DNA of 64,000 bases, taken from the IMG/VR virus record IMGVR_UViG_3300044557_000292, positions 323,388-387,387 of that record; one strand, written 5' to 3'. The first letter of the stretch is position 1; every line of letters starts with the position of its first letter. Below the pieces are notes generated by a model that was given only the letters and a program-made list of their open reading frames with translations, did not search any database and was not told the origin of the DNA. Source of the stretch: a virus. Lineage: Duplodnaviria; Heunggongvirae; Uroviricota; Caudoviricetes. Shown piece by piece: positions 7,558 through 60,878 of the stretch. The translations under genes were made by a program, and so were the position numbers.

Positions 7558-7618
7558 AGCTTACGTTGCTCCTCGTGTGGTGGACACAATCATGTTTACA
7601 TGATGCATCTAACGCGCT

Positions 7619-7837
7619 GGATGAACCCCCGCAACGCGGGGAATACCTGTCACCTTGAATGCTACTCGAGATCGTAGCACCGCGGGGATGAACCCCGCCT
7701 AGGCGGGGAATACGGGTGAGACTGGAATCGTTGTGATTGCTGGAGGTGGGTTCAACCCCGCAACGCGGGGAATACAGTGGGCTATTGAATGGTAGTGCTC
7801 ACATCTGTTGGGTTCAACCCCGCAACGCGGGGAATAC
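7619..7837 (-). CRISPR. small degenerate CRISPR array (4 repeats, 3 spacers); trailer side of the locus
   Basis: Repeats gatgaacccccgcaacgcggggaatac, gatgaaccccgcctaggcggggaatac and 2x ggttcaaccccgcaacgcggggaatac, with 33-35-nt spacers; the reverse complement GTATTCCCCGCGTTGCGGGGTTGAACC matches the type I-E repeat architecture. Confidence 0.8.
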
Positions 7838-7908
7838 GGCCTGTTCCACGGTCTTGTCAACATCTGTTGACATCATGATAGAGCTCATACTAAACGGTTA
7901 CGAGACGG

Positions 7909-8583: not shown

Positions 8584-8774
8584 GCCCACACCATTGCCTA
8601 CATGTCTGTCCACATTATTGTCTACACCGGTGTCTGCACCCATTCGAGCATGTCCGAGCGTCCGTCCATACGCATATGTCCTCATCTTAATCTTCATCCT
8701 ATTCCCCCGTGGATCTAGTGGCGTCAACGAGCATCGAAGTCGTATAGTAGCTTATGGTATCACCACGCGAGACG

Positions 8775-19749: not shown

Positions 19750-19770
19750 AAGTCAATAGTAACAATAAGG

Positions 19771-19860
19771 GGTGAACACCGCAACGCGGGGAATACTCTT
19801 GAATGATCTCCCGTCACCAAGTTTGAATACAGGTTCAGACCCGCCTACACGGGGTTCACC
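19771..19860. CRISPR. solitary degenerate CRISPR-like unit (2 diverged repeats, 1 spacer-length insert)
   Basis: ggtgaacaccgcaacgcggggaatac, then a 34-nt insert, then ggttcagacccgcctacacggggttcacc; sits exactly between the topA stop (19861) and the PNK start (19749). Confidence 0.6.
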
Positions 19861-31046: not shown

Positions 31047-31159
31047 TCTCCATCCAAAGACAAGAACGCTAATTTAAGTAAGAATAAGATATGAGTAGAT
31101 TGATGCCACAACTCCATAATTACAGGCAATATGCCTTCATAATCACCCACATGCCGTTT

Positions 31160-31267
31160 AGACGTGTTCTAACGTGCCATAGACGCCCCATTAGCATCAG
31201 TACGTGTTTTTTTTACGCAACTAGATAGAGTATGAGGAAGGCGCGTTAGAATTGCTTCCAGCGCGCC
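31160..31267. repeat. third copy of the GC-rich ~100-bp element related to the 53385..53487 / 57897..58010 inverted repeats
   Basis: Shared blocks cc-tagacgc, gtgttttttt, ggcgcgttagaa and tcc-gcgc-cc in the same order. Confidence 0.45.
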
Positions 31268-31297: not shown

Positions 31298-32701
31298 TCA
31301 CTCACCAGTATCAGATGCAGTTTCCTTTTCCGTGGCCGTCGTGCCTGCAGGCGTGTCGGCAGTCGCGGCCCCATCAGGATCAGGATTCTGGTGCGCTAGC
31401 TCTCTCAGAGACTTCGCGAGATCAACACCGGTGAGCGTGTTCACCAGTGTTGGCAACTTGGCAGCAAGATCGGTTACGAGACTAGATGTCCGATCCTGCG
31501 CGTCTGTACCAACCGAGGTGATGGTAGCGCCCTCAAGAGGCTTGCTCAGGGATGCGGCAAGCTCAGGCAGCTTCTCGATGATGAGTGACTGCAGGGCAGC
31601 CTGACCATACTTACGATAGGCCTCCGCCTTCTTGTTCATAGCCTCGGCCTCTGCAAGACCCTGTGCCCTCACAGCGTCAGCCTTGGCCTCACCCTGCGCT
31701 CTAATCGCCTCGGCCTCAGCGACAGCTCGCGCCTTCGTTGCGGCAGCCTCAGCATCAGCATTCTGACGGGTGACCTCGGCCTGGGCCTCAGCATCAGTCT
31801 TCCTCTTGTACTTCTCAGCGTCAGCCTTCGTGTTCACGTCAGACTCAAGACGAACCCTCTGCAGCTTGACGTTCTCAGCTTCGGCGAGAGCCTCGGCCTC
31901 AGCAATCTTCTTATTCTGTGCCTGCTGTTCGAGACTCTTCACGGCCTCAGCGTTCACATCAGCCTTACCGATGTCAGCCTTAATGCTTGCCTGTTGTAGA
32001 GCGAGATCCTTCTGACTCAGAGCGATCTCTCGATCAGCGGCGATCTGCGCTTGCTGGGCTTCCTGCTTAGCATTCGCCTCAGCAATCGTGGCGGCCTTCT
32101 TCACAGACGCTTCCTGAGGAGCACCAAGAGCATCAATATAACCAGTCTGGTCATTGATCTCCTGAATCTGGAGCGTATCCAGGGACAGCCCCTGAATGGT
32201 GATAGAGTCAGCGACCTCATCACGGACAGCCTTCGTGAACTCAAGACGATCAGAGAGAAGACTCTCGACCGTCATCCCGCCTACGATAGACCTCATCGAT
32301 CCCTCAATGATTTCCTTCACGTACGGCTCCATGATCTGTTCCTGCCGAGAGAACCTCTGGGCTGCCAGGCGGATGTCCTCATCGGTGTTATTCACCTTGA
32401 AGGTTGTAACGACCTTGAGGTGGATCTTGATCTTCTCCTTAGAGATGGCATCGCATTCAGTACTGATCTGATGCGACTTGAGGGAGATGCTCACCACCCT
32501 GTTGATGAAAGGCCAGACGAATCCTCCACGATTCTGGAGAACCCTGACCGCTCTGTTCCCATTATCATCTTTACCATTTGATCCAGAGATGACGTAGGCC
32601 TCGTTGATGGTCGGCGTCTTATACCGGCTCACCAGGAACCATACTAGCAAGATGACGATCAGTATGATTGCTCCTGCGCCTATAGGGGTCGAATAATCCA
32701 T
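31298..32701 (-). CDS. flotillin-like SPFH/band-7 protein
   Basis: N-terminal TM, SPFH domain, then a long Ala/Glu/Gln/Lys coiled-coil repeat region (AEANAKQEAQQAQIAADRE...). Confidence 0.85.
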   Translation of the reverse strand: MDYSTPIGAGAIILIVILLVWFLVSRYKTPTINEAYVISGSNGKDDNGNRAVRVLQNRGGFVWPFINRVVSISLKSHQISTECDAISKEKIKIHLKVVTTFKVNNTDEDIRLAAQRFSRQEQIMEPYVKEIIEGSMRSIVGGMTVESLLSDRLEFTKAVRDEVADSITIQGLSLDTLQIQEINDQTGYIDALGAPQEASVKKAATIAEANAKQEAQQAQIAADREIALSQKDLALQQASIKADIGKADVNAEAVKSLEQQAQNKKIAEAEALAEAENVKLQRVRLESDVNTKADAEKYKRKTDAEAQAEVTRQNADAEAAATKARAVAEAEAIRAQGEAKADAVRAQGLAEAEAMNKKAEAYRKYGQAALQSLIIEKLPELAASLSKPLEGATITSVGTDAQDRTSSLVTDLAAKLPTLVNTLTGVDLAKSLRELAHQNPDPDGAATADTPAGTTATEKETASDTGE

Positions 32702-32838
32702 TCATATTCCTTTCCGAGAAATTGAGCCCATTGACTATTATGCATAGCACGAACAGGACTAATCGTCACGTTTCAATGCATACGAGATAATATAATACCA
32801 TTATTCCAATCAATATGAAATCAATCAATTCGGTATCG

Positions 32839-33774
32839 TCAAATCTTATCCAGGTTATCCAGGAATATTTGATCATCAAACGGGTCATGATCACTGTTTT
32901 CAAGTTCGGTAACGATCACGTCAATCACGTACTTGTCCTTGGAGGCCTTTCCACCACCGTAGAAGCTTGTATTCTTTATGAAGTTATTGTTATCATCATG
33001 CCATAAGACGCACGTGTCAGTCCCACCGTCTTGCAGTGGCTTCACGGTAGGCCAACAGTTGGGAGCATCGAAGTCGTGCTTCGTGATCACGTTCGACCTC
33101 ACGTCAAAACGAACGATACCAGGGAATAAGAGCCTCTTCTCATTCAAGGCCAGCTTCTCCTTGATGTACGACTTCCTATCAGCGTTGGATCTTCTCCGAT
33201 CCTGCTTCTCGTGTGTCTTCCTGAACATATTCTTGTACCTGGTTAAGATCTTCGACTCTAATCTGTACTGAAGCTTGACACCCCTGAGATCGTCTTCCAC
33301 CGCCCTGATCTTACCGGACAATTCCACATGCTTGTACGCCGATCGGGGAATCGTTCTATTCTCCGTCTTCAATGCTGACAGGCCTGACTTCATCTGACTG
33401 ATCTTATCCTCAAGTGAAGACACGATGCACTTCTGCGCGTCATAATCGTCGAACGCCTTCCTCTCTGTTGGCGTATAGTCAGTTGAGGACAGATTCCACG
33501 AGGAGGGTTCTAGGGCGATGAGACCGAATTCATGCTCTATGGCAGAACCCCATACCTTCTCACCGTATGCTCTCAGCCAGGCGCTCTTCTGCCGTGACGT
33601 GATGTCATTATCACCGGTATTCGACCCCTTGTAATGCTCCCTTGGAATGGTGAACCTCACCCTTAGTACCTTGGGATCATCAGAGTGAGATGAACGCACC
33701 TTGAATCCAGCATCAGTATCGTCTTCGATCACATTACCAGTATCCTGAAATCCATCGGACATGATTAGTACCAC
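32839..33774 (-). CDS. hypothetical protein
   Basis: 311-aa ORF. Confidence 0.45.
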   Translation of the reverse strand: MVLIMSDGFQDTGNVIEDDTDAGFKVRSSHSDDPKVLRVRFTIPREHYKGSNTGDNDITSRQKSAWLRAYGEKVWGSAIEHEFGLIALEPSSWNLSSTDYTPTERKAFDDYDAQKCIVSSLEDKISQMKSGLSALKTENRTIPRSAYKHVELSGKIRAVEDDLRGVKLQYRLESKILTRYKNMFRKTHEKQDRRRSNADRKSYIKEKLALNEKRLLFPGIVRFDVRSNVITKHDFDAPNCWPTVKPLQDGGTDTCVLWHDDNNNFIKNTSFYGGGKASKDKYVIDVIVTELENSDHDPFDDQIFLDNLDKI

Positions 33775-34796
33775 CCATTAGAATTGCTATGCTGAGCTGC
33801 CGCCGAGGGGGAACCATACCTGGACGCAATGTAATTCAGCCCCCAGTCGACCTGCACCCTGTAATCTGATCTGTACGCATCGGTCTGGCACTCACTGTGG
33901 CCAAGGCATTGCGGGATTCCAGACGCTCCGGATGACGCATTGTATGACGACGGATTCCATCCCGACTCACGATTCCACAACCATACGAGAGCACTGAATT
34001 CAGATTCACTCCACCCCCGGCTCAAGACCTTAGAGTGAGCATAAGACTGCGCATCCCCGGCCGGCACAGCAGGAGTCATTGGGGAAGACGCACCTGATGC
34101 CGTTGAAGATGGCATCTCCTTAAGATTAGAGTACGCGGATGAGAGGCCATTCATGGTAGCATTCAGGGCCGATGGATCCAAACTTTTGTTATGAATGAGG
34201 TCATTAGCCGCATTGACGTTAGACGACCATTCAGACCAGCTATCACTCGTGTACTTGTCCTTATCAAGACTCTTGTGATCATTCAAGAATCCCTGCATCT
34301 TGCCTTTTATACCTATGGCCTTGTCTTGGGTCTCCGCCTGGTTCTTCAAATTGGACTTGAGTTGTTCAGAATCCTCTCCGAGAGTCCAAGTGCCATCACC
34401 AGTGTTAGCGTTCTTCTCGGAAAGGTACTCCCTTTGAAAGTCCCTCGACACTCTACTACCAGAAGACAATGAGTAGTGATCTTTAACAACGCGAGATTTG
34501 GGAGGGATCGCCCGGAGCTTTGCATCTGGCGCGCGGAGATGACCCATTATTGACCACATAACGCTTGTGGCTATCATGACTGCGATCATAATGACTGCAA
34601 CAATGATAGCTTTCCTGTTGATATTAATGGGAGCAGCATGCCGCGCTGAACCCGCGCGCTCGTATTCTATTCCACGCCGATTCCTAATAGGATCGTCTCT
34701 CGTGATCGTCTTATCTGGCTTCATATAAAGAATAGATATGTCCGTCGGGCTTGTTCTTCCGGTAATGTTCATGATAAACGGCATCAATACAATCAT
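33765..34796 (-). CDS. membrane-anchored protein with C-terminal SLT-like lytic transglycosylase domain
   Basis: N-terminal TM; C-terminal NRESGWNPSSYNASSGASGIPQ matches the SLT family motif E-S-x-x-N-x-x-A-x-S-x-x-G-A-x-G-L-M-Q. Confidence 0.55.
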   Translation of the reverse strand: MIVLMPFIMNITGRTSPTDISILYMKPDKTITRDDPIRNRRGIEYERAGSARHAAPININRKAIIVAVIMIAVMIATSVMWSIMGHLRAPDAKLRAIPPKSRVVKDHYSLSSGSRVSRDFQREYLSEKNANTGDGTWTLGEDSEQLKSNLKNQAETQDKAIGIKGKMQGFLNDHKSLDKDKYTSDSWSEWSSNVNAANDLIHNKSLDPSALNATMNGLSSAYSNLKEMPSSTASGASSPMTPAVPAGDAQSYAHSKVLSRGWSESEFSALVWLWNRESGWNPSSYNASSGASGIPQCLGHSECQTDAYRSDYRVQVDWGLNYIASRYGSPSAAAQHSNSNGWY

Positions 34797-35203
34797 ATTA
34801 GCAAGGGCAATACTAGCGCAATGAGGGTAGCTCCAGCGACAATGAACGCGACGATCTTAACGGTAAGACGCTCAACCTTGACCTTCCTCGCGGGACGAGG
34901 ACGAGTTGGGTCCTCATGCTGCTCCCTCAGCTTTTCCGCTCTGTCCTTCACCCTACGGCTCATAGCCACGGATATTGAAGATGAGTCTATGGTCGCATGG
35001 CCCTTAGGAGAGGAATCTTCGGAATGGTCATCGCCATTGCTTGGCGGCACGGCATGGGTCTTGTCATCAACGGGATCATTCCCACTACTCATTGCTGAAC
35101 GACGGGCCTCCTCGGCCTTTAGATTCTCAACCCTCCTGCTCTCCTTCTCAAGACGCTTCATGCGTTCTTGCCGCTTCCTCCTTGATGCCGATCTTGACGA
35201 CAT
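34793..35203 (-). CDS. hypothetical basic/coiled-coil protein with C-terminal TM
   Basis: 136-aa ORF. Confidence 0.4.
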   Translation of the reverse strand: MSSRSASRRKRQERMKRLEKESRRVENLKAEEARRSAMSSGNDPVDDKTHAVPPSNGDDHSEDSSPKGHATIDSSSISVAMSRRVKDRAEKLREQHEDPTRPRPARKVKVERLTVKIVAFIVAGATLIALVLPLLI

Positions 35204-35205
35204 GA

Positions 35206-35823
35206 CTATCTTCCTCCTATCTGATTCGGGTATCTGCTTATGGTAGATCTCCCCGCACGCACCTTGTATGATGCAGAGGGACCGTCAACGATTCCAAAGA
35301 GCTTCCATGCTCCAACGGTCTTCAACCATGCTATCATTCTGTCAACATCTTCCTGAGTGGAATCCTCCATGTCAATGATCACGGAAATGTCACCAGTGAA
35401 ATCCTCATTGACGTGATCTTCCCACCCGTTGAATAGTCGAAGGGCGAAGTCCTCATCCATCTCCTCATCGCTGAACATGGTCTCCCTAGTGATAGTGACA
35501 ATGTCCACGTTGACTGGGCTGACCACGGCGGCAGCGCAAATCTCGTCACGAAGATTCCTAATGAAAGCACCGCGACTAGATCTGATCGCGTAAGACATAG
35601 CCCATCTGCCCTCATTATCCAGATTATTGAAGGAATCCTTCCTCGTATAATGCTTCACATTCCTAATATCGACAGACCGCAACTTCCTGTCGACCTTCAC
35701 CACGTCAAGTCCCAGTGATGATACAGCACGATCTTTAAGCCATCCATTCAAGATCGTGCGCGTCCTCATGCCATCGACCACAGATTGAATCTTATCAGAT
35801 TCATCATTTATTATTCTTCTCAT
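35206..35823 (-). CDS. hypothetical protein
   Basis: 205-aa ORF. Confidence 0.45.
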   Translation of the reverse strand: MRRIINDESDKIQSVVDGMRTRTILNGWLKDRAVSSLGLDVVKVDRKLRSVDIRNVKHYTRKDSFNNLDNEGRWAMSYAIRSSRGAFIRNLRDEICAAAVVSPVNVDIVTITRETMFSDEEMDEDFALRLFNGWEDHVNEDFTGDISVIIDMEDSTQEDVDRMIAWLKTVGAWKLFGIVDGPSASYKVRAGRSTISRYPNQIGGR

Positions 35824-35920
35824 TTACAGAACTCCATCCCAATCGTCATCACGAGCAGCGGATGACTAAGACGTTATAACCAAATAGTCATTATAACTTT
35901 ATAATCATGTGAGAATCAGG

Positions 35921-36658
35921 TCATAACAATCGTTCTTCCGTGAGTCTAACGGCATCGAGAACAGCCTCATGGATCGTGTCGTCATCACGGGGGCGCTCGT
36001 CAGAATCAGCCGTGACAATCCCATCAGCTATCTTGGCCACACGGTAAAGCTCTTCGTCATTGATCCTCATCTTATTGATCTCGGCAATGTCATCCTCATG
36101 AATAGAATGAACGGCTTTGACGATCCGGTTGACCTCATCTTCGCCCGGTTCATCATCTTCATCAGTATCATCATTCTCATTGTCCTGCGCGAGTAGAGAC
36201 TCATTGTCCTCATACGGTAGCCATGAGTCTGATCCTATGATGACGGTTTCCACGCCGTCTTCACCCCTCCCGTAGTCTACCGTCACTCCAGTAAGACGAG
36301 ACGTCACGCCAGACGTACGGATAAGACTCTGGACCCTCACGCCCCCAGCGCCAACAAGATGATTATCCCTGAGATCATTGAGAATATTGATGAGGTCATC
36401 AACCGTCATGGGACGGTAGACGTAATGATTGCCAACGTTCACCTTGAGCGTTGGATCATCAGCAGCGTAATCCCTGTAATCACCATTACCAGAGTCTTGG
36501 ATCGCCGGGTCATCTGAATCATCCTCGACGGCCGCCTTCCTCAGCTCGGTTCTCTTCTTATCAAGGCTAGACCACCATCTATCAGCTATCACGTCTCTAT
36601 GCTCAGCCATTCCTACTCCTCCATTAAGATTCATATTCGTCAAATCTTGTAAGCTCAA
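35921..36658 (-). CDS. hypothetical acidic protein
   Basis: 245-aa ORF. Confidence 0.45.
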   Translation of the reverse strand: MSLQDLTNMNLNGGVGMAEHRDVIADRWWSSLDKKRTELRKAAVEDDSDDPAIQDSGNGDYRDYAADDPTLKVNVGNHYVYRPMTVDDLINILNDLRDNHLVGAGGVRVQSLIRTSGVTSRLTGVTVDYGRGEDGVETVIIGSDSWLPYEDNESLLAQDNENDDTDEDDEPGEDEVNRIVKAVHSIHEDDIAEINKMRINDEELYRVAKIADGIVTADSDERPRDDDTIHEAVLDAVRLTEERLL

Positions 36659-36786
36659 AACCCGTCAAACATCGTCAGATTATTAAGATATTGAACGATA
36701 TGGTTAGAACCAATCGATCTTAATATAATCCAATAATTGGGGCCTTATGGGAAGACCCCCATACATGACCCCTGGTCAACGTGAGT

Positions 36787-38097
36787 CTACTTGACTTCCG
36801 AATCCTCAGATCCATCTGACGGCAATGTCCTATCAACCTTACTCGACAGAGTGTTAATGAGATCAGTTCTGGTATCATCGAGGATCTTGGATTCCATGAG
36901 CGTCTTATTCAGAAGATCAAGTTGCTTCTGCATTCTCTCGGTGGCATCATGATTGAACTCTACAGAATTCTTCTCAGCATCCTTGAACGCCTGATGGGCC
37001 GAGATGATCGTGTTCAGGGTGGCTTGCATGTTCTCAACGTTATCATGGAGGCTCTCCTGGATCTTATTCACACTGTCCACAGAGTCCTTAAGATTCACCG
37101 CGTTATCCATGTTAAGATTGACGGCGGCCGCGTCTGCCGTGAGTACAGCCTTACGAGCCGTTTCCTGGACGTAGATTCCATGGGCGAGTTGAACGGCGGA
37201 CTTGAGACGGATGACCGCCGTGTTCTTCGTGCTCTTGACCTGCTCGATCATCTTCCAATGCGTCTTCGCGAGGAGGTCAATAGAAGCAATGTACGTGGTC
37301 TGACCGGCAGCGATGTTGATGAGATCAGATCGTCTGCGTTCTAGGGTGTTCAGTACCTCAGACTCAAGAGCTTCCTTAATCTCGGGATCAGCATTGAACT
37401 TGCCGCTTGATAATTCCGTCCTCAACTGTTCGATGATCTTACCAGCCAAGGACGCTTGTTGCGTGGCGGCCTCAACGCACTTCAACGCCCTGACGCGATC
37501 TTCCTTATATACCGCAATGTCACTCCTGAGCGAGAATTCATACTTGGTGAGCGTCTTCATGCAATCCTCAATGACTGCACCAGCCTTGCGGGTCTTATTG
37601 AAGAAGCTGCGCACTGGGTCATATACCGCTCGAAGGAGCTTGTTCTCCGGGCGATGGAGGATCTTCCTAGCATCAATGTCATTCATCGCGTTAGACATCT
37701 TGGTGAGCGTCTTGCCAATGTTCTTATTGGCTTCAGATCCCCTGCCAAGCTCTCCCATCGATATGTCAAACTGAGACTTGTTACTGATATCTGGGAGGAG
37801 ATCTTTAATAGCATCCTCACCGAAGTTCTCATACTTCTCGTGGAGATCATAGATCTTCGAGAATTTCTGTGAATCTTTAGCGTCATGCGACTTGATGACG
37901 TTGAAGGTATCACCAGAGATAAGACTTGAATCCATGAACTTCTTGTGCCCGGAGACAGCATTAGCAACAGCCTTCTTAGCAGCCTCAACATCATTCCTCG
38001 TATCTGACTCTAACTGCGGGGCTGCCGCGACCCCCGCCGAAATTGATCCATCATCCATACTAACCATTCTCCTTATAGCATCGTTATGATTGGCCAT
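36787..38097 (-). CDS. coiled-coil protein, possibly TelA-like (toxic anion resistance family), tentative
   Basis: 436 aa, all-helical composition; segment YENFGEDAIKDLLPDISNKSQ...MGELGRGSEANKNIG loosely resembles the TelA N-terminal FG...S..S...GE.G pattern. Confidence 0.35.
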   Translation of the reverse strand: MANHNDAIRRMVSMDDGSISAGVAAAPQLESDTRNDVEAAKKAVANAVSGHKKFMDSSLISGDTFNVIKSHDAKDSQKFSKIYDLHEKYENFGEDAIKDLLPDISNKSQFDISMGELGRGSEANKNIGKTLTKMSNAMNDIDARKILHRPENKLLRAVYDPVRSFFNKTRKAGAVIEDCMKTLTKYEFSLRSDIAVYKEDRVRALKCVEAATQQASLAGKIIEQLRTELSSGKFNADPEIKEALESEVLNTLERRRSDLINIAAGQTTYIASIDLLAKTHWKMIEQVKSTKNTAVIRLKSAVQLAHGIYVQETARKAVLTADAAAVNLNMDNAVNLKDSVDSVNKIQESLHDNVENMQATLNTIISAHQAFKDAEKNSVEFNHDATERMQKQLDLLNKTLMESKILDDTRTDLINTLSSKVDRTLPSDGSEDSEVK

Positions 38098-38165
38098 GAA
38101 TACATTATAACAACAGATGACCTAACAATGCAATTCGCAGGACGAGGAGATGATTCTATCATACT

Positions 38166-38801
38166 TCAGAATATCTGCCAGTAATGGATGAGTACAGCGA
38201 CGATAAGCGCAGCGAGAATGACGATGGCAGCGAGTAGCGATTCTAACCCGATCGTGAACTTGTACACCCCTGCATGATGCTCTGACTCCCCCAGAGCCCA
38301 CTGCCTCCACGTTCCGAATGCAAGCAGTACTGTCCCCAGATCCATGGTGAGGCACCACGGGCACATAGCACCAATCACGAATACTGACTGCTGGAGGAGC
38401 CATGTGGAGAAGATGAACGCAATGACCACGCCAATCCTGAACCCCCATTCCACCCATCGCGGGATGCTCACCCCGCTCGCGACCAGCACGCCTATCGTAA
38501 CGAAGACGGAGAACACGATGAGACCAAGGAACGCATTGGGAACTGCCCCGTTACCAGGCCAGTGAATCAGGGTAGACTGCCATGACTCTGCAACCGTTGA
38601 GCATGACAGTTTAGCATTCACGTCGCATGCGAAGATCGTTTTCGGGTTCAACGCCCTCCAATACGCTTCCAGTGATAGCATGAGAGATGCAAGCAGACCA
38701 AGAACTGATCCGATGGTAATTAACACTCCAGACCATATCTGGCTCGATCGTACCCTGAATATCCCGTTAATCATGTCTTCTTCCTGTTCTAGTAGATTCA
38801 A
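38166..38801 (-). CDS. VKOR (vitamin K epoxide reductase) family membrane oxidoreductase
   Basis: Loop Cys pair CDVNAKLSC, TM CxxC (MCPWC), about 5 TM helices. Confidence 0.6.
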   Translation of the reverse strand: MNLLEQEEDMINGIFRVRSSQIWSGVLITIGSVLGLLASLMLSLEAYWRALNPKTIFACDVNAKLSCSTVAESWQSTLIHWPGNGAVPNAFLGLIVFSVFVTIGVLVASGVSIPRWVEWGFRIGVVIAFIFSTWLLQQSVFVIGAMCPWCLTMDLGTVLLAFGTWRQWALGESEHHAGVYKFTIGLESLLAAIVILAALIVAVLIHYWQIF

Positions 38802-45756: not shown

Positions 45757-45915
45757 TCAGATTCAACTATCATCAGAACACAACGATCTACTGTACTTCT
45801 GATGATAATCTTAACGATGATGCTTGGAAAAGCGTCCTCATGTATAACGTTACTTCCTGAGCGCTGAATCGTCATAGAATCACGAGATCTTGAATTCCAT
45901 CGTTGCACTATTCTT
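45757..45915. repeat. copy 2 of the ~160-bp conserved noncoding element (see 423..585)
   Basis: Perfect 11-bp stem tatcatcagaa/ttctgatgata with an 18-nt loop. Confidence 0.6.
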
Positions 45916-53177: not shown

Positions 53178-53384
53178 TCCCTAGTTACGTCGGGATGATC
53201 TGACTGCTAGCACGTCAAGACACCGTCAACGAGGTAATCTCAATGGCAGCATGCTAACAGTATCCTCTCATTAATGGTAATCTTTACCAGCGCGGAATGC
53301 AACTATCACTCAGCGTGAAGCATCTCAAGTGGAATTGGGACTGCGGCCGTGGATTAGCACTGGACAACCCTCCCAGACGCATTC

Positions 53385-53487
53385 CATGCCGCCTTAGACG
53401 CTCGGCCCGTCACGGCATGTGTTTTTTTACTCACCTGGTCCACGGGGCGTTAGAACGCATCCTCCGCGCTCCTAATGCATTGCGCCC
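53385..53487. repeat. left arm of a ~115-bp imperfect inverted repeat (partner 57897..58010)
   Basis: agacgcattccatgccgccttagacgctcggcccgtcacggcatgtgtttttttactcacc...ggcgttagaacgcatcctccgcgctcc; contains the hairpin catgccg/cggcatg followed by a T8 run. Confidence 0.65.
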
Positions 53488-53687
53488 CGGGTTCAAACCC
53501 TCGAAGATCGTGGGTGTCGCAGACCTCCGACGCCACCGTCACAGACCATCACTGGTTACCCCCTATGGCTCGACGCACCCACGGCTCGACGTATTCACAT
53601 GCCACTCGACATGCCACTCATGCCATCACCATCACTGCCCTGCGCCACCATGCCATGCGCTGCAGATCCACGCTGCTTTTGGTATCT

Positions 53688-53758
53688 CCCCCGCAGACCC
53701 TATAATCCTAGGATATGCTTCCCCGTGTTACACGGCCAGCGTTGAAATCTAGCCCTTC
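53688..53758. repeat. promoter/operator-like ~70-bp repeat, copy A
   Basis: ccccgcagaccctataatcctaggatatgcttccccgtgttacacggccagcgttgaaatctag; contains TATAAT, the CCTAGG palindrome and the GTGTWACAC palindrome. Confidence 0.6.
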
Positions 53759-53886
53759 CTGAAAAACACAATCTCCAGTGGTGAGGGCAGCATATTCCTC
53801 ACCACCAGCGACCACCGTCACCCCGGCGCAGGTCATCAACGACATCGCCAGTCACACGACGTATGCCTGGCGCCTAGTCCCCTCGG

Positions 53887-54348
53887 CTACCCATCATATC
53901 TGTTTCCCACCAGAAGATCGGCTGCCATAAGTGGGGAATCGGTGATCTCCAGATTATCCCCGTCACGATCGATCCTGAACTGGTCATATGCGCTTACACC
54001 GTCATCGGTCATCCTGAGCAGCGCGAGCCTAGTCGAAGCTGGGTCGCTAGTATCATGTTCGCGCACAAGCGCGTCGAAATTGATGAGACTTTCGGTATGG
54101 CCGGCGCTGATGGAACCGCCGTTAGCCCACAGGTAAAGAGTGTGACGGGAGACCCCAAGAGCCTTGGCCAGTTGACGCATCGTGAGTCCAGAGCGCTTCT
54201 GGACGTCATGGAGAAGATCGGCGAGAGTACTTATGGCAGATCCCCCGGGGACTGGCGCATCCACGAGACCCACGTACTCCACGTCCTCTCCCGACCGCAC
54301 GCAGTAGTGAGGGTGCCAGCCCTCGCCGTGCTTGCTCTCTCCGTCCAT
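53887..54348 (-). CDS. HTH (XRE-like) DNA-binding protein
   Basis: LTMRQLAKALGVSRHTLYLWANGG helix-turn-helix; start is ~65 nt downstream (on the minus strand) of repeat copy B. Confidence 0.55.
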   Translation of the reverse strand: MDGESKHGEGWHPHYCVRSGEDVEYVGLVDAPVPGGSAISTLADLLHDVQKRSGLTMRQLAKALGVSRHTLYLWANGGSISAGHTESLINFDALVREHDTSDPASTRLALLRMTDDGVSAYDQFRIDRDGDNLEITDSPLMAADLLVGNRYDG

Positions 54349-54410
54349 GATGATCCTCCACTCCCTCGGTCCATCCGATAACGCGGCCTGCGCTCGTGGA
54401 CCAGGGGATC

Positions 54411-54483
54411 TCCCCAGCAGACCCTGTAATTCCTAGGATATGCTTCCCCGTGTTACACGGCCAGCGTTGAAATCTAGCTCTTC
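54411..54483. repeat. promoter/operator-like repeat, copy B
   Basis: tccccagcagaccctgtaattcctaggatatgcttccccgtgttacacggccagcgttgaaatctagctcttcc. Confidence 0.6.
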
Positions 54484-54534
54484 CCCAAAAAGAGCATTAG
54501 AAAGGGCTAAAACCCTTACTGTTATGATCCACAG

Positions 54535-56055
54535 TTACTTCAACCGCGCGTTCTGGAGTCCATAAGCGCGGTTATGATTGGTGCCACGAGCACTGGGCTC
54601 GTCCATCTCGTCAAGCAGCTCACCGACATAAGTCATGTCAACAGCGTCCTCGTGGAACGCCTTCCTCTCATAGACCAGTCTGCTCATGTCAGCATGATCT
54701 AGAACATAATCTAGAGCGGACTCATCTTCAAGATCACGTGGACGAGCATCGTCATCCCCGTGAGTGATCCTGCTCTCAAGTACGTGACGGAGACGCTTCA
54801 CGCGGAGATACCTATCCGACTTCACCTTGGCCATGTACCCGTCACGGCTATAGATCACGACGCCCTCACGATCTGACCCATGAGCACGATTGATAGCATC
54901 AGCTAACTCCTCGCGATTGCTAACGACCTCAGATCTTCTAATGTCCTCATTCCTCCACCCAATTCCATTCATGATCTCATCGTCAGCATCACGATCAATG
55001 CTGAACACTGAATCGTTCCTGACGCAGTGAATGAAGAAGCATTCCGAGTGGTCGTATGGAATGATGTGCCTATCAGAATTATGGTCAATGATCTCGCACG
55101 CGATCGTCACGTCATGATCATAGATAACGTCATGCACCCTCTTGATGAGGGCGGGATCGTTACCGAGCTGGTTCCTGAACGCCTCATCGACCAGAGCAGA
55201 GTAGTCCGTCTGTCCACTCTTCGAGTAGAATCTAAGAGTCCCATCACGACGCGCGCCAATGAGTCCAAGGAACCCGTTCTGCTTCAACTCCACGGTTGCT
55301 GGATACCTGACTCTGTCAAGAACCTTCTCAAGGGTGGTCTCATCATTCTCCCCAATATTGAAGAACTTGTCGAATCCACGCATGACGACTCTTCCAGAAT
55401 GATCTAGGAATAGGCCGCGCGCCTTTGAGGAGTACTCATCCCAATCATGATTGTAGAACGCCCTGCGGGTGAAGTTGCAAGCGTAGACATCATCCTCGCC
55501 CTCGACCTTCTTCACCCTGACATTGCGATTAGCCGCCATCTTAACGAGGAGGTTGCTGTCATTCTTGAGATCATTAACCGTGAACGGTATGGTATCCTCA
55601 AGACGGGAGTACTGTCTGCGAACATACGACTCGGGAACACGATCGTCCTCTGGGCGGGTCTTATTCCTCGCTACGAGATCTTCCAGCGGAACGTCAGTCA
55701 AGTCTTCAATCCTGACGTCAGCATGAGCTCTGGTCGCCAGGTCAACGAGGCCTTTAAGATCGGGTATGGCGATGTTCTGAGCGTCAAAGATCACACTCAC
55801 TCCAGCCTTGAGCAGTCTTGACGCCAGGTCACGAGCGGAATGGACTATGACGTCTTCACCGTTCTTTCCAACACCCTCGTTCCTGGTCTTTAAGAGCTGC
55901 CATCCCTGACGAGATCCTCCCAGCATGGTCCTCATCGAGTCGTATGATACGATGACCGAGCCAGTCTTCCTGGACAACTCGCGGGCTCGCGTGGTCTTAC
56001 CGCTCCCAGGAAGACCCCTCATGATCGTGAGCGTGGTCTTTTCAAACTTCTTCAT
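54535..56055 (-). CDS. P-loop polynucleotide-kinase-like domain fused to a nucleotidyltransferase (RNA/DNA ligase-like) domain
   Basis: N-terminal IMRGLPGSGKTT...SYDSMR (Pnk-like); C-terminal VELKQNGFLGLIG resembles ligase motif I (KxDG with D replaced by N) plus downstream conserved blocks. Confidence 0.5.
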   Translation of the reverse strand: MKKFEKTTLTIMRGLPGSGKTTRARELSRKTGSVIVSYDSMRTMLGGSRQGWQLLKTRNEGVGKNGEDVIVHSARDLASRLLKAGVSVIFDAQNIAIPDLKGLVDLATRAHADVRIEDLTDVPLEDLVARNKTRPEDDRVPESYVRRQYSRLEDTIPFTVNDLKNDSNLLVKMAANRNVRVKKVEGEDDVYACNFTRRAFYNHDWDEYSSKARGLFLDHSGRVVMRGFDKFFNIGENDETTLEKVLDRVRYPATVELKQNGFLGLIGARRDGTLRFYSKSGQTDYSALVDEAFRNQLGNDPALIKRVHDVIYDHDVTIACEIIDHNSDRHIIPYDHSECFFIHCVRNDSVFSIDRDADDEIMNGIGWRNEDIRRSEVVSNREELADAINRAHGSDREGVVIYSRDGYMAKVKSDRYLRVKRLRHVLESRITHGDDDARPRDLEDESALDYVLDHADMSRLVYERKAFHEDAVDMTYVGELLDEMDEPSARGTNHNRAYGLQNARLK

Positions 56056-56134
56056 GATAAAGATCCTTCCTTCATAACAGCATTCATTTGTTTATGATAA
56101 TGACAATAACGTGACTGATTGGGCTTCATTGAGA

Positions 56135-56893
56135 TCACTTGGCGTTGTTCTCATCTTGGTTAAGAATCCTGTCAAGCTCCGCATTCAGACCCCCATACCA
56201 CTCCATCTTGCTCTTATTCCTTGAATCTTCCCTAATCGCCTCACCCTCCTCGGATTCGATGGAGGACTTGATCTTGTCAAGCTCCCTCTCCTTGTACTCA
56301 TCGACCTTACCAGCGTCAACATTGGTTGAGATAGAGCCGTCATCAGAGCGATTCACGTAATGATCGGGAAGAGTGATTCCGTCATACAGCTCTTGCAGTC
56401 GCCTAAGGCCGGGTTCGGGGTTCTTATAATCGACGTTAATGTATTCAAGATCGCTGATCATTGAATCGATGGCATCATCAAGATGCCAGGCTAGTTCAGA
56501 CTTATAATCAGAATACTCCTCGGCTGCATTCCAGTCCACGATCTCCTGGTACTGCATTCTGAGCAGCGGTAGTCTTGCAAGGTAATCGTGCGCAAGGTCA
56601 AGATCCCTCTGCGTCTTAGCCTTCTCAGCAAGAATGTCTTCACGCTCAGAGTTGATATAGGATTCAATCCAATCGTACTCATCACGGCTCTTGAGCTCGT
56701 TCAATCTAAGCTGCTTGGTCTTTATGGAATCCCGCCATTTATTACTAGTGAAGTAGCCTTCTGGTACTTGTCCGTATGGATCGTCTTCATCTCTGATACT
56801 GTAGAACACCCAGAAACTCCTCATGACCTTGTCCGCAAGCCTGCGCGCGTCGTCCCCACCCTTCACGATTCCATAGTTCAATCCAGTAGTCAT
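56135..56893 (-). CDS. hypothetical acidic protein
   Basis: 252-aa ORF. Confidence 0.45.
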   Translation of the reverse strand: MTTGLNYGIVKGGDDARRLADKVMRSFWVFYSIRDEDDPYGQVPEGYFTSNKWRDSIKTKQLRLNELKSRDEYDWIESYINSEREDILAEKAKTQRDLDLAHDYLARLPLLRMQYQEIVDWNAAEEYSDYKSELAWHLDDAIDSMISDLEYINVDYKNPEPGLRRLQELYDGITLPDHYVNRSDDGSISTNVDAGKVDEYKERELDKIKSSIESEEGEAIREDSRNKSKMEWYGGLNAELDRILNQDENNAK

Positions 56894-57017
56894 AGATCAA
56901 TCCTTTCAGCACTAAGAACAAAACCACAGGTCTATGATTCTATGATAACACAAAAAGCGCTATCAGCTCGCCAGACCATAAGATTATGCCAAATCGCATC
57001 TTTTAAGACGATTCCTG

Positions 57018-57090
57018 GGAGGGGCTAGATTTCAACGTTGGCCGTGTAACACGAGGAAGCATATCCTAGGATTATAGGGTCTGCGGGGAA
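57018..57090. repeat. promoter/operator-like repeat, copy C (inverted relative to A and B)
   Basis: ggaggggctagatttcaacgttggccgtgtaacacgaggaagcatatcctaggattatagggtctgcgggga is the reverse complement of copy A with 3 mismatches. Confidence 0.6.
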
Positions 57091-57378
57091 GACGTCATAG
57101 TGCCGTCGGTGGTCTGCAGCACGCGGCTATACCACGAGCGCAAGTGGAATGCAGCGCTCGACAACGCCAGGCCATAGTGATGGGTGGTGCTCAGAGACGA
57201 TGGTGAAGCAAGCCACAGAGGCCCCGGTGATGATGGCGATACCCAGTGGTGATCTATGATGGCTACGCCAAGTGTCTGTGGTCTGCGGGGAAGCTAATGG
57301 TCTGTGCCTACGGCATCGCCGGGCCATATCCTCACCGTTGGAGACCATGATTTTTAGAAAGGGCGTAATAGCAACGCT

Positions 57379-57430
57379 TCTAGTGTAACACAAGGAAGCA
57401 TATCCTAGGAATTACAGGGTCTGCGGGGAT
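57379..57430. repeat. promoter/operator-like repeat, copy D (partial, inverted; B-like variant)
   Basis: ttctagtgtaacacaaggaagcatatcctaggaattacagggtctgcgggga. Confidence 0.55.
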
Positions 57431-57487
57431 GGCCCGCCCTGAGGGATTGTTGCTGAGGGTAGGGATGCCCAAGCAAAGGACCAAGGA

Positions 57488-57775
57488 ATGTACACGGCAA
57501 CAAGCATCGACGGAGCAGTGTCCAACATCAGCGGGAGGATCCGGGAGCACAGAAGGAATTACGACCCGAACCAGGATCAGCTGTTTCCAGGACTGCCCGT
57601 GGAGTTCGATTGCGTCATTGATTTGGGAGACCATGGATGGATTGCCACTCCGCACTATTGGATTGAGGATGACACGGTGAGCATGGACATGACGGGTGAT
57701 GATCGACGGCCCCTATCCGAGCTGGCCGGTCTGCTCAGCGATCACATGGCGTCCGCACGGACGCAGGTGCGCTAA
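57488..57775 (+). CDS. small hypothetical protein (95 aa), plus strand, ~60 nt downstream of repeat copy D
   Basis: AAGGA motif 8 nt upstream of the ATG; sits relative to copy D as the HTH gene sits relative to copy B. Confidence 0.35.
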   Translation: MYTATSIDGAVSNISGRIREHRRNYDPNQDQLFPGLPVEFDCVIDLGDHGWIATPHYWIEDDTVSMDMTGDDRRPLSELAGLLSDHMASARTQVR

Positions 57776-57896
57776 TTCCGGCGAGTCGTCAGCGCGACTC
57801 TCATAATCTGATGGTCGCGGCCGTGATGCCATTCCTCTCATAGGGTTCCACCCATACCGCCCCCTGTACTGGTGGCGAGCACGGTCGGCATCACGA

Positions 57897-58010
57897 GGGG
57901 ACGCAATGCGCTAGGAGCGCGGAGGATGCGTTCTAACGCCCTGTGGGCCCGGTGAGTAAAAAAACACGCGCCGCGCATGGTCGAGCGTCTAAGGCATCAT
58001 GGAATGCGTC
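57897..58010. repeat. right arm of the ~115-bp imperfect inverted repeat (partner 53385..53487)
   Basis: Its reverse complement aligns with 53385..53487 at roughly 85% identity, including the T/A run and the gcgttagaacgcatcctccgcgctcc block. Confidence 0.65.
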
Positions 58011-58089
58011 TGAGGTGCATCTGTGTCATCCTTGAGCAAACAGTCAATGCAGAATCGTATTGATCGATCAGCCGTCATGCTATCGTGAA

Positions 58090-58713
58090 TCAGCGACGAT
58101 TATCGAAGACGCTCATGTATGGGATTGGAGGCTCGATGAAGGGTCTTGAAGACAACTGGACCCTATTACCGAGCTTCTCCAATAACGAGCCTATCTTGTC
58201 CCCAAGCGCTTGAGCCCTAAGACCGGCCTTCAACGTTATCTCATCACCGGAGATCGTCGCTATCTCAATCTGATCGTCAAGGAACTCCCAGACCCCGCCT
58301 CGAATAGCCTGGAGTCTTATGCTCTTGAATGGAATCATACGCAGTGCGATAAGCTTCCTCTCCATTATCTTCAAGCGAGGAGGAAGATTCAAGACCCAGT
58401 TCACATTGTTAACATGATCATCATGGATCAGCATGATCTTCGCCTTGACGATGAGAGAATCGAACTCGTGCGTCTGGTACTGCAGGCTAAAAGCTTCCAG
58501 TGAGAGCGCTATCTGTAGGATCTTGTCGTCCATCCCGTTATGATAAAGCGGGGTTAGAAGCTCGTCATAATCGTGAGCGTTGGCGATCTCGGAATTTGAT
58601 CCTAATCCAGACATGGCTGAATTGGCCACATTGTGCAATAATCTATATCTATTCAGGCTCGATCTATTATCATTATGATGCTGATCTGGAGCCCCAGCAG
58701 GGTGATCACTCAT
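58090..58713 (-). CDS. hypothetical protein
   Basis: Tracked ORF runs to 58860, but the likely start is MSDHPAG (ATG at 58713), 2 nt after the stop of the upstream 69-aa ORF. Confidence 0.45.
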   Translation of the reverse strand: MSDHPAGAPDQHHNDNRSSLNRYRLLHNVANSAMSGLGSNSEIANAHDYDELLTPLYHNGMDDKILQIALSLEAFSLQYQTHEFDSLIVKAKIMLIHDDHVNNVNWVLNLPPRLKIMERKLIALRMIPFKSIRLQAIRGGVWEFLDDQIEIATISGDEITLKAGLRAQALGDKIGSLLEKLGNRVQLSSRPFIEPPIPYMSVFDNRR

Positions 58714-58915
58714 CGTCATCACCCTCATCTGGCAGGGGGTCCTGAGCGTCGTTATCAGGTGTTCCATCGTCATTAATGCCAACCATGATGAGGGCGGGAG
58801 TGATGGGGTAAGCCTCTCGGGTTTTCCAGAACCTCTCCACGTAAGCGTTGTCAGCATCACCGTGGTATTGTGGCTTATAGTATTGATCCTTCATGTTGCT
58901 CCTTTGAAAATTCAT
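58706..58915 (-). CDS. small acidic hypothetical protein (69 aa)
   Basis: Short ORF with a DEGDDDE tail, tightly coupled to the downstream gene. Confidence 0.35.
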   Translation of the reverse strand: MNFQRSNMKDQYYKPQYHGDADNAYVERFWKTREAYPITPALIMVGINDDGTPDNDAQDPLPDEGDDDE

Positions 58916-58986: not shown

Positions 58987-60330
58987 TCATACGATTGCCA
59001 CAACAATATTTGATATGAGGAAGAACAACCCGAACAGTATGATCGGGATGCCAAAGATAAGCTTCATGATTCTCCCCACGCTCTTATTAGCCTGCTTGTC
59101 CCATGCGTCAAGGAATATGGACAAGTTGGGCTCATGACTCTCATGACGTAGTGGACGCGCTGCCCGTAGAACATCATCAGCTGCATTAGACAAGAACTCG
59201 TGCAGCTCCTTATACTCATTCATCATGTTCTTATCATTGACTGTCGTGATGCCCGTCCTCGCGTATGATACGTAAACCTTCGACCCTATGAAGTGAACCA
59301 CACCACGGGCGTGTTCGAATCTTACAATCTCATCAAGCAGTGTTGGCGTTGCGGCCAGAAATCCTAGAGCGTCATCAGCCTCTTCCTCCGGAGTGTAAGC
59401 GTGGTTTTTCCTTGAGTTCGAGAATGCGTCAAGTTTGAGCTCCCTCGCACCTGGTATCTTCATACCATTTGATCCGAACGTGATCATAATATTCGGCACA
59501 GTATACGGCACGTTGAGCTCAGCGATGTTCACTGGCGCGCCACAGACCTCATTGATTCCTATTGGAACGTATCTTCCAGTCGTGTACCTATCATCGGGAC
59601 CGTTATCCCGGTGATGCGTGAGGATCTCTAGCTTCCTGACCTCACTTCCATCCCAACGGTACATTGGCAACGATGATCCATCCTCAGGGAGTCCACGGTC
59701 CCTATACCTGCCCTCATCAATCCTATCATTGATGTCCACGTCTCCATCCCATACCGGGATTGGTGTTCCCTCAAGAATTGCCCTCATGTACGTAGCACCA
59801 CTCTTCGCGTTATAGAAAATGTTCTTCTCGTCATTCAGCATAGATGGACGCCAGAGCGTGAGGTACTGGCGGATGTATGCATCCTCGCCCATATGGCCAT
59901 GAATCCTCCACGTCACTATGGATCTCTTCATGAGCGCGTTCTTCGGATTCACGTACATGTCCGTATCATTATCATCTGTACGCTCTGATGACTGGTAAGA
60001 GTAAGCTTTATTCTCACGAGCCCATGAGCTTATGACCTTATCCTGATCATTTATGACATTAGCAAGCTGCTCTACCGACCTCAGTGTCTCATCAACGGGG
60101 ATAATCTTGAATTCACCACGATCTAAAGCCGTATCAGATCTAGTAGCGCTATTCCTATGCTGACTATGATCTCTGACCACTTGTTCACTACTGCCCAATG
60201 CATCACTTGGAAGTGGGAGGGATCCGCGTCGCGTTGATTCATCTCCTGATGGTTGAGTGAAGAATGATTCCATCCTGTCATGATCTACTGGATCAGAGTG
60301 ATTGACCCCATGCGTTCTCCTGATGGCCAT
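58987..60330 (-). CDS. hypothetical protein with C-terminal TM anchor, co-encoded downstream of the second LemA
   Basis: 447 aa; C-terminal IMKLIFGIPIILFGLFFLISNIVVAIV. Confidence 0.45.
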   Translation of the reverse strand: MAIRRTHGVNHSDPVDHDRMESFFTQPSGDESTRRGSLPLPSDALGSSEQVVRDHSQHRNSATRSDTALDRGEFKIIPVDETLRSVEQLANVINDQDKVISSWARENKAYSYQSSERTDDNDTDMYVNPKNALMKRSIVTWRIHGHMGEDAYIRQYLTLWRPSMLNDEKNIFYNAKSGATYMRAILEGTPIPVWDGDVDINDRIDEGRYRDRGLPEDGSSLPMYRWDGSEVRKLEILTHHRDNGPDDRYTTGRYVPIGINEVCGAPVNIAELNVPYTVPNIMITFGSNGMKIPGARELKLDAFSNSRKNHAYTPEEEADDALGFLAATPTLLDEIVRFEHARGVVHFIGSKVYVSYARTGITTVNDKNMMNEYKELHEFLSNAADDVLRAARPLRHESHEPNLSIFLDAWDKQANKSVGRIMKLIFGIPIILFGLFFLISNIVVAIV

Positions 60331-60878
60331 TAGAAGTGGACCTCCACGTTCTTCCTATCTGACTCCTCGGCCTCGAAGAGCTGCCTGACGCCAATGTGAG
60401 CAGTATTGGCCACAATATTAGACGGTATGGTCTGGACGGCCGTGTTAAGATCGTTAGCGGCTGCATTGTAGAGCCGACGGGATGCTGAGATCTTATCCTC
60501 TGTGTCTGCAAGCTCTTCCTGCAGCTCTGTGAAACTCTCGGATGCCCTTAACTGCGGGTATGATTCTGCCACAGCAAGAAGTCTTCCAATCGCATGATCA
60601 CTCTCGGCAAGTGCTGTGGATTTGTCTTGAAGCGTATCAGCATGGAGGAGTGACGCCCTGGCATCAGTGACAGATTTGAATACGGTGGACTCGTGGGTCG
60701 CGTATCCCCTCACAGACTCGACTAGGTTTGGTATGAGATCAGCTCTCCGCTTGAGCTGGACATCTATTCCTGATTCGGCTTCTGCAGCATTGTTCTTGAG
60801 CACCTGGAGCTTGTTGAAGTAGTGAATGTATCCAATAATGAGAACAGCAATAATGACTAACGCGATTATAATGGCCAT
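60330..60878 (-). CDS. lemA: LemA family protein (second paralogue)
   Basis: N-terminal TM plus LemA signature (...SYPQLRASESFTELQEEL...RRLYNAAANDLNTAVQTIPSN). Confidence 0.8.
   Translation of the reverse strand: MAIIIALVIIAVLIIGYIHYFNKLQVLKNNAAEAESGIDVQLKRRADLIPNLVESVRGYATHESTVFKSVTDARASLLHADTLQDKSTALAESDHAIGRLLAVAESYPQLRASESFTELQEELADTEDKISASRRLYNAAANDLNTAVQTIPSNIVANTAHIGVRQLFEAEESDRKNVEVHF

Follow-up and report, generated by a model that had tools for sequence, protein, structure and literature searches.

Conserved intergenic repeats delimit exchangeable cassettes in a probable accessory island of a large phage

This report concerns a 4.6-kb block, bounded by inverted repeats, in a 64,000-nucleotide stretch of a phage genome (Caudoviricetes; positions 323,388 to 387,387 of IMG/VR virus record IMGVR_UViG_3300044557_000292). 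The whole stretch is called the window below, and coordinates refer to it unless a contig is named. We read the locus, with a probability of roughly 0.6, as a patchwork accessory (moron) island of a large phage, in which terminator-like and promoter/operator-like repeats delimit gene cassettes and act as recombination points. Conserved repeats of two classes are present, cassettes differ between relatives by insertions and deletions with breakpoints in the repeats, one repeat is chimeric, and the repeat copies evolve in concert.

The proposed arrangement is as follows. The first class, a flank element of 115-160 bp, has two predicted hairpins, giving a canonical intrinsic terminator (stem plus T7) in one reading and a GC-rich hairpin in the other, so it most likely insulates the island in both directions. 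The second class, ~85-110 bp long and containing one ATATCCTAGGATAT-like palindrome and one GTGTTACAC palindrome, is a putative promoter/operator module. It most likely drives the gene for an Xre-type helix-turn-helix (HTH) protein from repeat B and a 95-aa open reading frame (ORF) from repeat D, possibly firing in both directions, and is probably controlled by that same Xre-type protein. An operon of a 252-aa ORFan and a kinase-RNA ligase fusion, the presumed RNA-repair cargo, would have a phage-type extended -10 promoter of its own. The length and similarity of the repeats would let homologous recombination and gene conversion between them insert, delete and swap cassettes.

Seven related metagenome contigs (L003-L007, L013 and L015), obtained by exact-protein look-ups and originating from few source samples, provide the comparison. 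All seven carry the repeats in the same orientation, with differing gene content. Contig L003, which is 96-98% identical to the window, has two direct copies of the flank element with 1.56 kb of additional DNA between them; this insert encodes a superinfection-exclusion (Sie)-like membrane protein (1984-2724 of that contig, minus strand). The right-hand flank element of the window, IR_R, is a chimera of these two copies: as far as CGCGCTCC every one of ~20 diagnostic sites agrees with outer copy a, and from TAGCGCATTGCG on the match is to inner copy b. It therefore carries the signature of a crossover inside the repeat. In L015, repeat D and the 95-aa ORF are absent, with breakpoints at the flank element and repeat C, and the order is flank element, ~150 nt, repeat C. 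The L015 kinase-ligase gene has two-thirds of its length replaced by 770 nt of unrelated GC-rich sequence (1714-2483 of L015), and in L003-L006 the gene is split into parts of 147 and 343 aa, so that it is broken in five of the seven contigs. The more distant L007 and L013 (76-83% identical to the window) show a homologue of the window's 256-aa protein, then the flank element, 350 nt, one repeat, the kinase-ligase gene, an inverted repeat and a different 70-aa ORF; no 252-aa, 95-aa or HTH gene is in view, and the neighbouring genes differ. Since sub-cassettes vary independently, with breakpoints at repeats, the 4.6-kb block is not a unit and is better described as a chain of cassettes. The initial annotation, made from the sequence of the window, had proposed checking whether the block is present or absent as one piece; presence/absence polymorphism bounded by repeats is seen for sub-cassettes and never for the whole block.

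Beyond these contigs, no relative was found in INPHARED (searched with blastn of the module), IMG/VR, the JGI contig collection or GTDB genomes. An IMG/VR locus search with the kinase-ligase and the 256-aa protein gave no match; the window's own kinase-ligase is not on record. Exact-pattern scans for the repeat cores found nothing real in IMG/VR, JGI metagenomes or GTDB genomes, the two IMG/VR matches being attributable to chance. When the module was compared by blastn with PLSDB, the sole match was the ligase gene, at 68%, in a Bifidobacterium longum plasmid.

Paralogous inner repeats within one genome are 92-95% alike (92% for A and B of the window, 95% for D and B of L003), while orthologous copies in the window and its relatives are 84-92% alike in the midst of genes that are 96-98% identical. 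Copies within a genome are thus as alike as orthologues or more so, which argues for gene conversion among copies, inverted ones included. The distribution of the TATAA and TGTAAT variants also differs between genomes. The pairing noticed at the outset, A with C (TATAA-TCCTAGG) and B with D (TGTAATTCCTAGG), holds in the window and is reshuffled in L003, in which TGTAAT marks A and TATAA the other three repeats.

Constraint on both classes is visible in L007, where coding DNA nearby retains only 76-83% identity. Within the flank element, a block of 30 nt (GCGTTAGAACGCATCCTCCGCG and adjoining bases) is invariant there, as are ~40 positions of the inner repeat, in the pattern TCCTAGGATATGCTT.C...TGTTACAC..CAGCGTTG..AT...GCCCTT. 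The TATAAT side of the inner repeat is not conserved (TTATAT/CTATAT), and the CCTAGG region of L007 forms a perfect 14-bp palindrome, ATATCCTAGGATAT. Judged by this conservation, the repeats are under selection.

The four inner repeats, ~85-110 bp long and containing CCTAGG and GTGTTACAC, have the arrangement given by the initial annotation, with A and B direct and C and D inverted relative to them. They occur at this locus only within the 64-kb window, and all four occurrences of GTGTTACAC in the window lie inside them (0.27 expected by chance). Repeats B and D end 57 nt before the HTH start codon and 59 nt before that of the 95-aa ORF, the initial annotation having given about 60-70 nt; measured from TAGGAA, the distances in B and D are 77-81 nt, and both start codons bear Shine-Dalgarno sequences. 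The proposed regulatory layout also holds up: the repeats are non-random and are placed as regulatory elements would be around the HTH and kinase-ligase genes. Seven copies of the octamer CGCAGACC are found in the window against 2.1 expected, five of them inside the module (53518, 53692, 57078, 57280, 57418). Some of these fall in the spacers, which are poorly conserved (42% mean identity), and this suggests that spacer octamers are decayed copies of one ancestral unit. Upstream of the B. tibiigranuli homologue of the HTH gene, neither GTGTWACAC nor repeat-like sequence was found.

The outer inverted repeats, recovered as described, are 115 nt long and 87% complementary (blastn E=1.6e-29), and homology of the left copy, IR_L, with the others extends from 53329 to ~53555. 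Each had been credited with a hairpin and a T8 run. The hairpins are present (that of IR_L has a 7-bp stem and a 21-nt loop), the run is T7 in both copies, and the terminator scan called a canonical stem and T-run only for IR_R, read on the minus strand directly 3' of the 256-aa gene (58090-58860). Read the other way, the element presents a GC-rich hairpin first and no U-tract; this is the gene direction at IR_L and at the third copy. That third copy, which had also been noticed earlier, was recovered by a profile search of the 64-kb window that found no others; its position between unrelated genes 22 kb away marks the flank element as a more general intergenic element of the genome. Taken together, these features point to a boundary element that probably works at the DNA or transcription level, as a two-way terminator/insulator, and conservation beyond what a terminator needs makes protein binding possible. 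Three further ideas about the element were rejected. A mini-ORF within it (MRSNA...) has a Shine-Dalgarno sequence directly abutting its ATG and encodes a peptide that is not conserved; a small RNA ending at the T-run of IR_L would have no credible promoter upstream; and GCGTTAGAACGC as a genome-wide operator shows no enrichment outside the three elements.

The cargo was correctly named as a kinase plus a ligase and two ORFans. The kinase-ligase has an AAA_33 polynucleotide-kinase-like domain (PF13671, E=9e-20) and a T4 Rnl1-family RNA ligase domain (PF09511, E=7e-29), with matches to phrog_8238 and phrog_505; no phosphatase domain was found in its 506 residues. Homologues on Bifidobacterium chromosomes and on another phage-like contig have a metallophosphatase (Metallophos) gene directly upstream, in the slot that the 252-aa ORFan occupies in the window. 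A kinase-ligase and a metallophosphatase form a healing-and-sealing gene set of RNA repair, and we infer from the domains an RNA-repair role of the T4 Pnk/Rnl1 type for the cargo. The 252-aa protein has no family match and only six distant relatives among 1.8 billion representative proteins. The HTH protein shows pN/pS (nonsynonymous over synonymous variation) of 0.28-0.38 against its relatives. Its closest relatives outside the phage lineage are B. tibiigranuli proteins (62-65% identity), and the kinase-ligase is 48-53% identical to Bifidobacterium proteins; on these two resemblances the host is probably Bifidobacterium. The 95-aa ORF is likely to be coding, although this is not proven, since its pN/pS of 0.52 comes from 11 changes; a single-sequence AlphaFold2 model (pLDDT 54) is too poor for a fold search. 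The idea that this ORF is a paralogue of the HTH N-terminus, through inverted duplication of a promoter and gene start, was rejected: the BLASTP E-value of 0.42 is not significant and DNA homology ends ~30 nt past CCTAGG. The description of the block as GC-richer applies to the arms (IR_L to B and C to IR_R), which are 58% GC. It is only partly right, the kinase-ligase gene being at 52%, the 252-aa gene at 48% and the region upstream of it at 39%, against 50% for the window as a whole.

The motif TGTTATCATAGAAT that precedes the 252-aa gene has counterparts before rIIA (40906) and before a 447-aa gene (58928); all three are intergenic and lie on the gene strand, and the motif is conserved in L007. 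For the family TGTTATMAT / TATMATAGAAY, every gene-strand match falls just 5' of a phage gene, and both patterns are enriched over shuffled sequence. On this evidence the 252-aa/kinase-ligase operon has a putative phage-type promoter of its own and would not need repeat C. Minus-strand motifs of extended -10 type (TGTTATAAT / TATAATAGAAC) are located at 23307, 38104, 40906, 56937 and 58928, in AT-rich intergenic DNA just 5' of phage genes, and such a motif is likely to be the promoter consensus of this phage.

Terminator, promoter and operator activity, promoter direction and HTH binding are predictions drawn from sequence features. Read toward the HTH gene and the 95-aa ORF, the inner repeat has its conserved block 5' of a hexamer of the form TAnnnT, which is TAGGAA in B and D and TAGGAT otherwise, with GTGTAACAC at about -35 to -27. 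The repeat then ends distally in a T-run located past the terminator hairpin of the gene before it; that hairpin is strong for the HTH gene before A and weak for the kinase-ligase before B. Repeat D, moreover, is gained or lost together with the 95-aa ORF. As for the opposite direction, the order of flank-element terminator, spacer and TATAAT agrees with gene direction in L015 and L007. We put even odds on the direction in which B serves the HTH gene and D the 95-aa ORF; firing in both directions is possible and carries a distinctly lower chance. Repeat B places both palindromes (CCTAGG-centred and GTGTTACAC) before the HTH start codon, which is the operator layout of an Xre autoregulator, and it is plausible that the repeats hold a shared operator for the HTH protein. 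The CCTAGG-centred palindrome appears at least as good an operator candidate as GTGTWACAC, the one first put forward.

Several points weigh against the favoured account of the island. A sigma-70 scan flags only the opposite direction of the inner repeats (TATAAT of A and C, 10/12 matches), in which A and B would be antisense to the HTH and kinase-ligase genes, and a good -35 is found in neither direction. Two of the three flank-element copies are without a U-tract when read in gene direction. The single chimeric junction fits homologous and site-specific recombination alike, and none of the seven contigs, drawn from few samples, is without the whole island. Shuffling by itself does not account for the mirror-image layout. 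Finally, the terminator-like part and the promoter-like part belong to different repeats, with 150-350 bp between them, and there are three copies of the one and four of the other in 64 kb. PeSLs (promoter-early stem-loops), the mobile regulatory cassettes of T4-type phages, number ~50 in each genome; located in hyperplastic regions, each joins a stem-loop terminator and a sigma-70-like promoter in one conserved intergenic motif of ~100 bp (Arbiol et al. 2010, PMC2839356; Comeau et al. 2014, PMC4122927).

Table 1. Coordinates of the repeats, genes and signals of the island.
Feature	Position	Strand	Remarks
Third, diverged flank-element copy	31158..31266	+	Between SPFH/flotillin gene and 198-aa gene; nhmmer profile, E=1.3e-7
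IR_L, left flank-element copy	53374..53488	+	Predicted hairpin, then T7, then invariant block ACTCACC...GCGTTAGAACGCATCCTCCGCG
Repeat A	53652..53786 (core 53679-53766)	+	Plus reading TATAAT-CCTAGG-GTGTTACAC; minus reading T-run...GTGTAACAC...TAGGAT
HTH gene terminator (predicted)	53768..53812	-	12-bp stem then UGUGUUUUU; dG (folding free energy) -30.8 kcal/mol, z -2.4; abuts distal end of repeat A
Xre-type HTH regulator, 153 aa	53887..54348	-	Strong GGAGGA Shine-Dalgarno; HTH_31/HTH_3/HTH_23 matches
Repeat B, TGTAATTCCTAGG variant	54403..54491	+	Between kinase-ligase stop codon and HTH start codon
Weak hairpin (AAGGGUUUUAGCCCUU) then U-rich tract	54502..54517	-	3' of kinase-ligase gene
Kinase-ligase, 506 aa	54535..56055	-	AAA_33 polynucleotide-kinase-like P-loop domain fused to T4 Rnl1-family RNA ligase; intact in window
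252-aa ORFan	56135..56893	-	Apparently co-transcribed with kinase-ligase
Extended -10 phage-type promoter motif TGTTATCATAGAAT	56937..56950	-	5' of 252-aa gene
Repeat C, TATAAT variant	57012..57127	-	Same reading as A, on minus strand
Repeat D, most diverged copy	57323..57436	-	75-78% identity to other copies; missing in L015 along with 95-aa ORF
95-aa ORF, function unassigned	57488..57775	+	No matches; kept in L003 with different start codon
IR_R, right flank-element copy	57898..58012	-	Minus reading is a predicted intrinsic terminator ~80 nt past 256-aa gene

Long terminal inverted repeats around a block with GC-deviating arms, and a related end-sequence copy elsewhere in the genome, are what might be expected of a non-autonomous transposable element (composite, or a miniature inverted-repeat transposable element) with 115-bp ends and a transposase encoded elsewhere, and mobility of this kind had been suggested for the block. 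We consider it very unlikely and did not retain it. The flanks (gacaaccctc and aggtgcatct) show no target-site duplication, and the ends are not sharp, since copies remain homologous for 45 nt beyond the 115-nt core on its outer side and for ~70 nt on its inner side. Neither transposase nor recombinase was found among the ~40 ORFs scanned in the window. Comparison of the seven contigs never shows the block gained or lost as one piece; its parts vary separately and no empty site is seen; the two L003 copies of the flank element are direct, not inverted; and exact searches for the end sequence in IMG/VR, JGI metagenomes and GTDB genomes were negative. The least probable explanation in our estimate is that the outer pair, or A and B versus C and D, serve as inversion substrates in a phase-variable switch of the kinase-ligase. 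The repeats are indeed nested and inverted, 75-115 nt long and 87-95% identical, and gene conversion between inverted copies means that the copies interact. The invertible segment envisaged earlier nevertheless has one orientation in all seven contigs, no invertase gene or recombinase domain was found among the scanned ORFs, and the operon between B and C carries a predicted internal promoter, because of which inversion would not switch it on or off. An integron cassette was also considered and rejected. Integrons have an IntI integrase, core sites of the form RYYYAAC...GTTRRRY and crossover at G/TT; here the ORFs scanned include no integrase, GTTAGAA and TTCTAAC come close to core sites without matching them, and because one diagnostic site 3' of GTTAGAAC is still of copy-a type, the crossover was not at such a core.

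Could the conserved elements act as RNA, either as a noncoding RNA gene made of inner repeat, spacer and flank element, or through a short RNA from the conserved 55 nt of the inner repeat? A unit of repeat, spacer and flank element does recur in the window (A to IR_L), in L015 (on both sides) and in L007, where a hairpin and T7 follow ~45 nt past the conserved block of the upstream repeat. On its A-run strand the flank element can also form a long helix, strand-specific because it requires G-U pairs. We think this explanation quite unlikely, given that none of the 26 pairs on the A-run strand shows compensatory changes, that the other strand shows only weak covariation, and that folding z-scores are mixed. 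GTGTTACAC is kept as sequence, with no covariation at the bases that would extend a hairpin; the spacers of the supposed unit are the poorly conserved ones described above, copies stand in both orientations relative to genes, and no Rfam match was obtained for the module even at E<=1 or for the whole window at gathering thresholds. Slightly better in our assessment, and still unlikely, is that the symmetry is a functionless relic of an inverted duplication of host-derived DNA around a captured kinase-ligase operon. The arms exceed the genome average of 50% GC, the HTH gene is closest to Bifidobacterium genes, and the spacers resemble decaying copies of one ancestral sequence. Invariant blocks of 30-40 positions in L007, amid much more diverged coding DNA, speak against loss of function, as does the placement of the elements exactly at gene boundaries, beside terminator hairpins and at fixed distances from start codons.

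The surrounding genes, nearly all on the minus strand, include rIIA-like and rIIB-like genes, a class I ribonucleotide reductase, a deoxynucleoside monophosphate kinase, a CCA-adding enzyme, a clamp-loader-like ATPase, a glucosyltransferase and many ORFans, and by this profile the window looks like part of a large (jumbo) T4-like phage. No tRNA or transfer-messenger RNA was found in the window. Topoisomerase I is represented by two adjacent ORFs, one with the Toprim and N-terminal part (20968-22389) and one with the C-terminal part (19861-20949), as a split gene or frameshift. The regions 31298-38801 and 60330-60878 contain membrane/stress-type genes unusual for a phage: SPFH/flotillin, TelA, VKOR, LemA and DUF805. 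A direct repeat of 132 nt (428-559 and 45759-45890; 78% identity, 45 kb apart), also present in L015, may be a further class of intergenic repeat.

An array resembling clustered regularly interspaced short palindromic repeats (CRISPR) occupies 7607-10105, with ~25 repeats of 28 nt (GGTTCAACCCCGCAACGCGGGGAATAC) at a 62-nt period that, read on the minus strand, resemble those of type I-E; no cas genes are present among the scanned window ORFs. Two neighbouring spacers (9175-9298) are identical. The array is broken at 7838-8761 by an ORF (7909-8727, minus strand) whose N-terminus has a pilin-like methylation motif. One lone degenerate repeat, at 19757-19796 just 5' of a second AAA_33 kinase-like gene (18490-19749, minus strand), could be a solitary repeat unit of the kind that some phages carry.

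Modular shuffling through repeats has so far been documented for the PeSLs of T4-type phages with Gram-negative hosts; confirmation of the favoured reading would extend it to an uncultivated large phage probably infecting Bifidobacterium, with unrelated elements of different architecture. The compact pair of promoter/operator and regulator, and the terminator/insulator, would then become candidate parts for bifidobacterial genetics, and the cargo points to RNA-repair counter-defence in this phage group. Current understanding is not overturned.

The locus resembles several known systems in part. Autoregulated operators of Xre/Aca-type or controller proteins likewise have a small HTH gene after a conserved element, with palindromes that here would overlap the -10/-35 area, and the same element is repeated before other island genes; the difference is that for half of the copies no gene obviously follows, whichever way the repeat is read, and the operator is only a candidate. 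T4 Pnk and Rnl1 repair tRNA, a counter-defence against anticodon nucleases such as PrrC. The cargo shares their P-loop polynucleotide-kinase-like and Rnl1-family ligase domains, and differs in being a single fused polypeptide with no phosphatase domain, no gene found next door for a healing 3'-phosphatase or 2',3'-cyclic phosphodiesterase, and a gene that is broken in close relatives. Phage morons are self-contained accessory genes with their own promoter and terminator. Here, too, GC-deviant genes lie between phage genes, bracketed by promoter-like and terminator-like elements, and the adjacent cassette of L003 is Sie-like; unlike those of morons, the bracketing elements are repeated and conserved, and several cassettes are chained.

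The closest parallel is with PeSLs: recombination between these motifs removes, adds or exchanges ORFans, and a chimeric motif remains (PMC2839356, PMC4122927). Both are conserved intergenic repeats of ~100 bp with terminator-like and promoter-like parts, which in the present case are recognized from sequence alone. Stems with T-runs occur in the flank element and beside A and B, -10-like TATAAT/TAGGAT in the inner repeat lacks a convincing -35 and may be read in either direction, and the parts largely belong to separate repeats. As with PeSLs, the setting is a variable region of a T4-like large phage, with repeats flanking ORFans, an Xre gene, a Sie-like gene (in L003) and a dispensable kinase-ligase, and cassette insertions and deletions in close relatives break in repeats, with one chimeric repeat left (compare Fig. 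3 of PMC2839356). The differences are equally clear. Many dispersed copies are not seen in the 64 kb, the inner repeat being confined to this locus, the sequences are unrelated and GC-rich, the two repeat classes are set apart, and the layout is a mirror image where PeSLs run head-to-tail; the island also contains an Xre regulator, and the host is probably a Gram-positive actinobacterium. A more ambitious proposal, which we regard as doubtful, is an undescribed self-insulated regulatory cassette system of actinobacterial jumbo phages, in which bidirectional terminator/insulators and symmetric promoter-operators under a resident Xre protein would control an RNA-repair counter-defence operon and provide new genes with portable landing pads; it would be the functional counterpart of PeSLs, of independent origin and with a built-in repressor. 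By the comparison made here, the locus would work as PeSLs do without being a member of the PeSL family.

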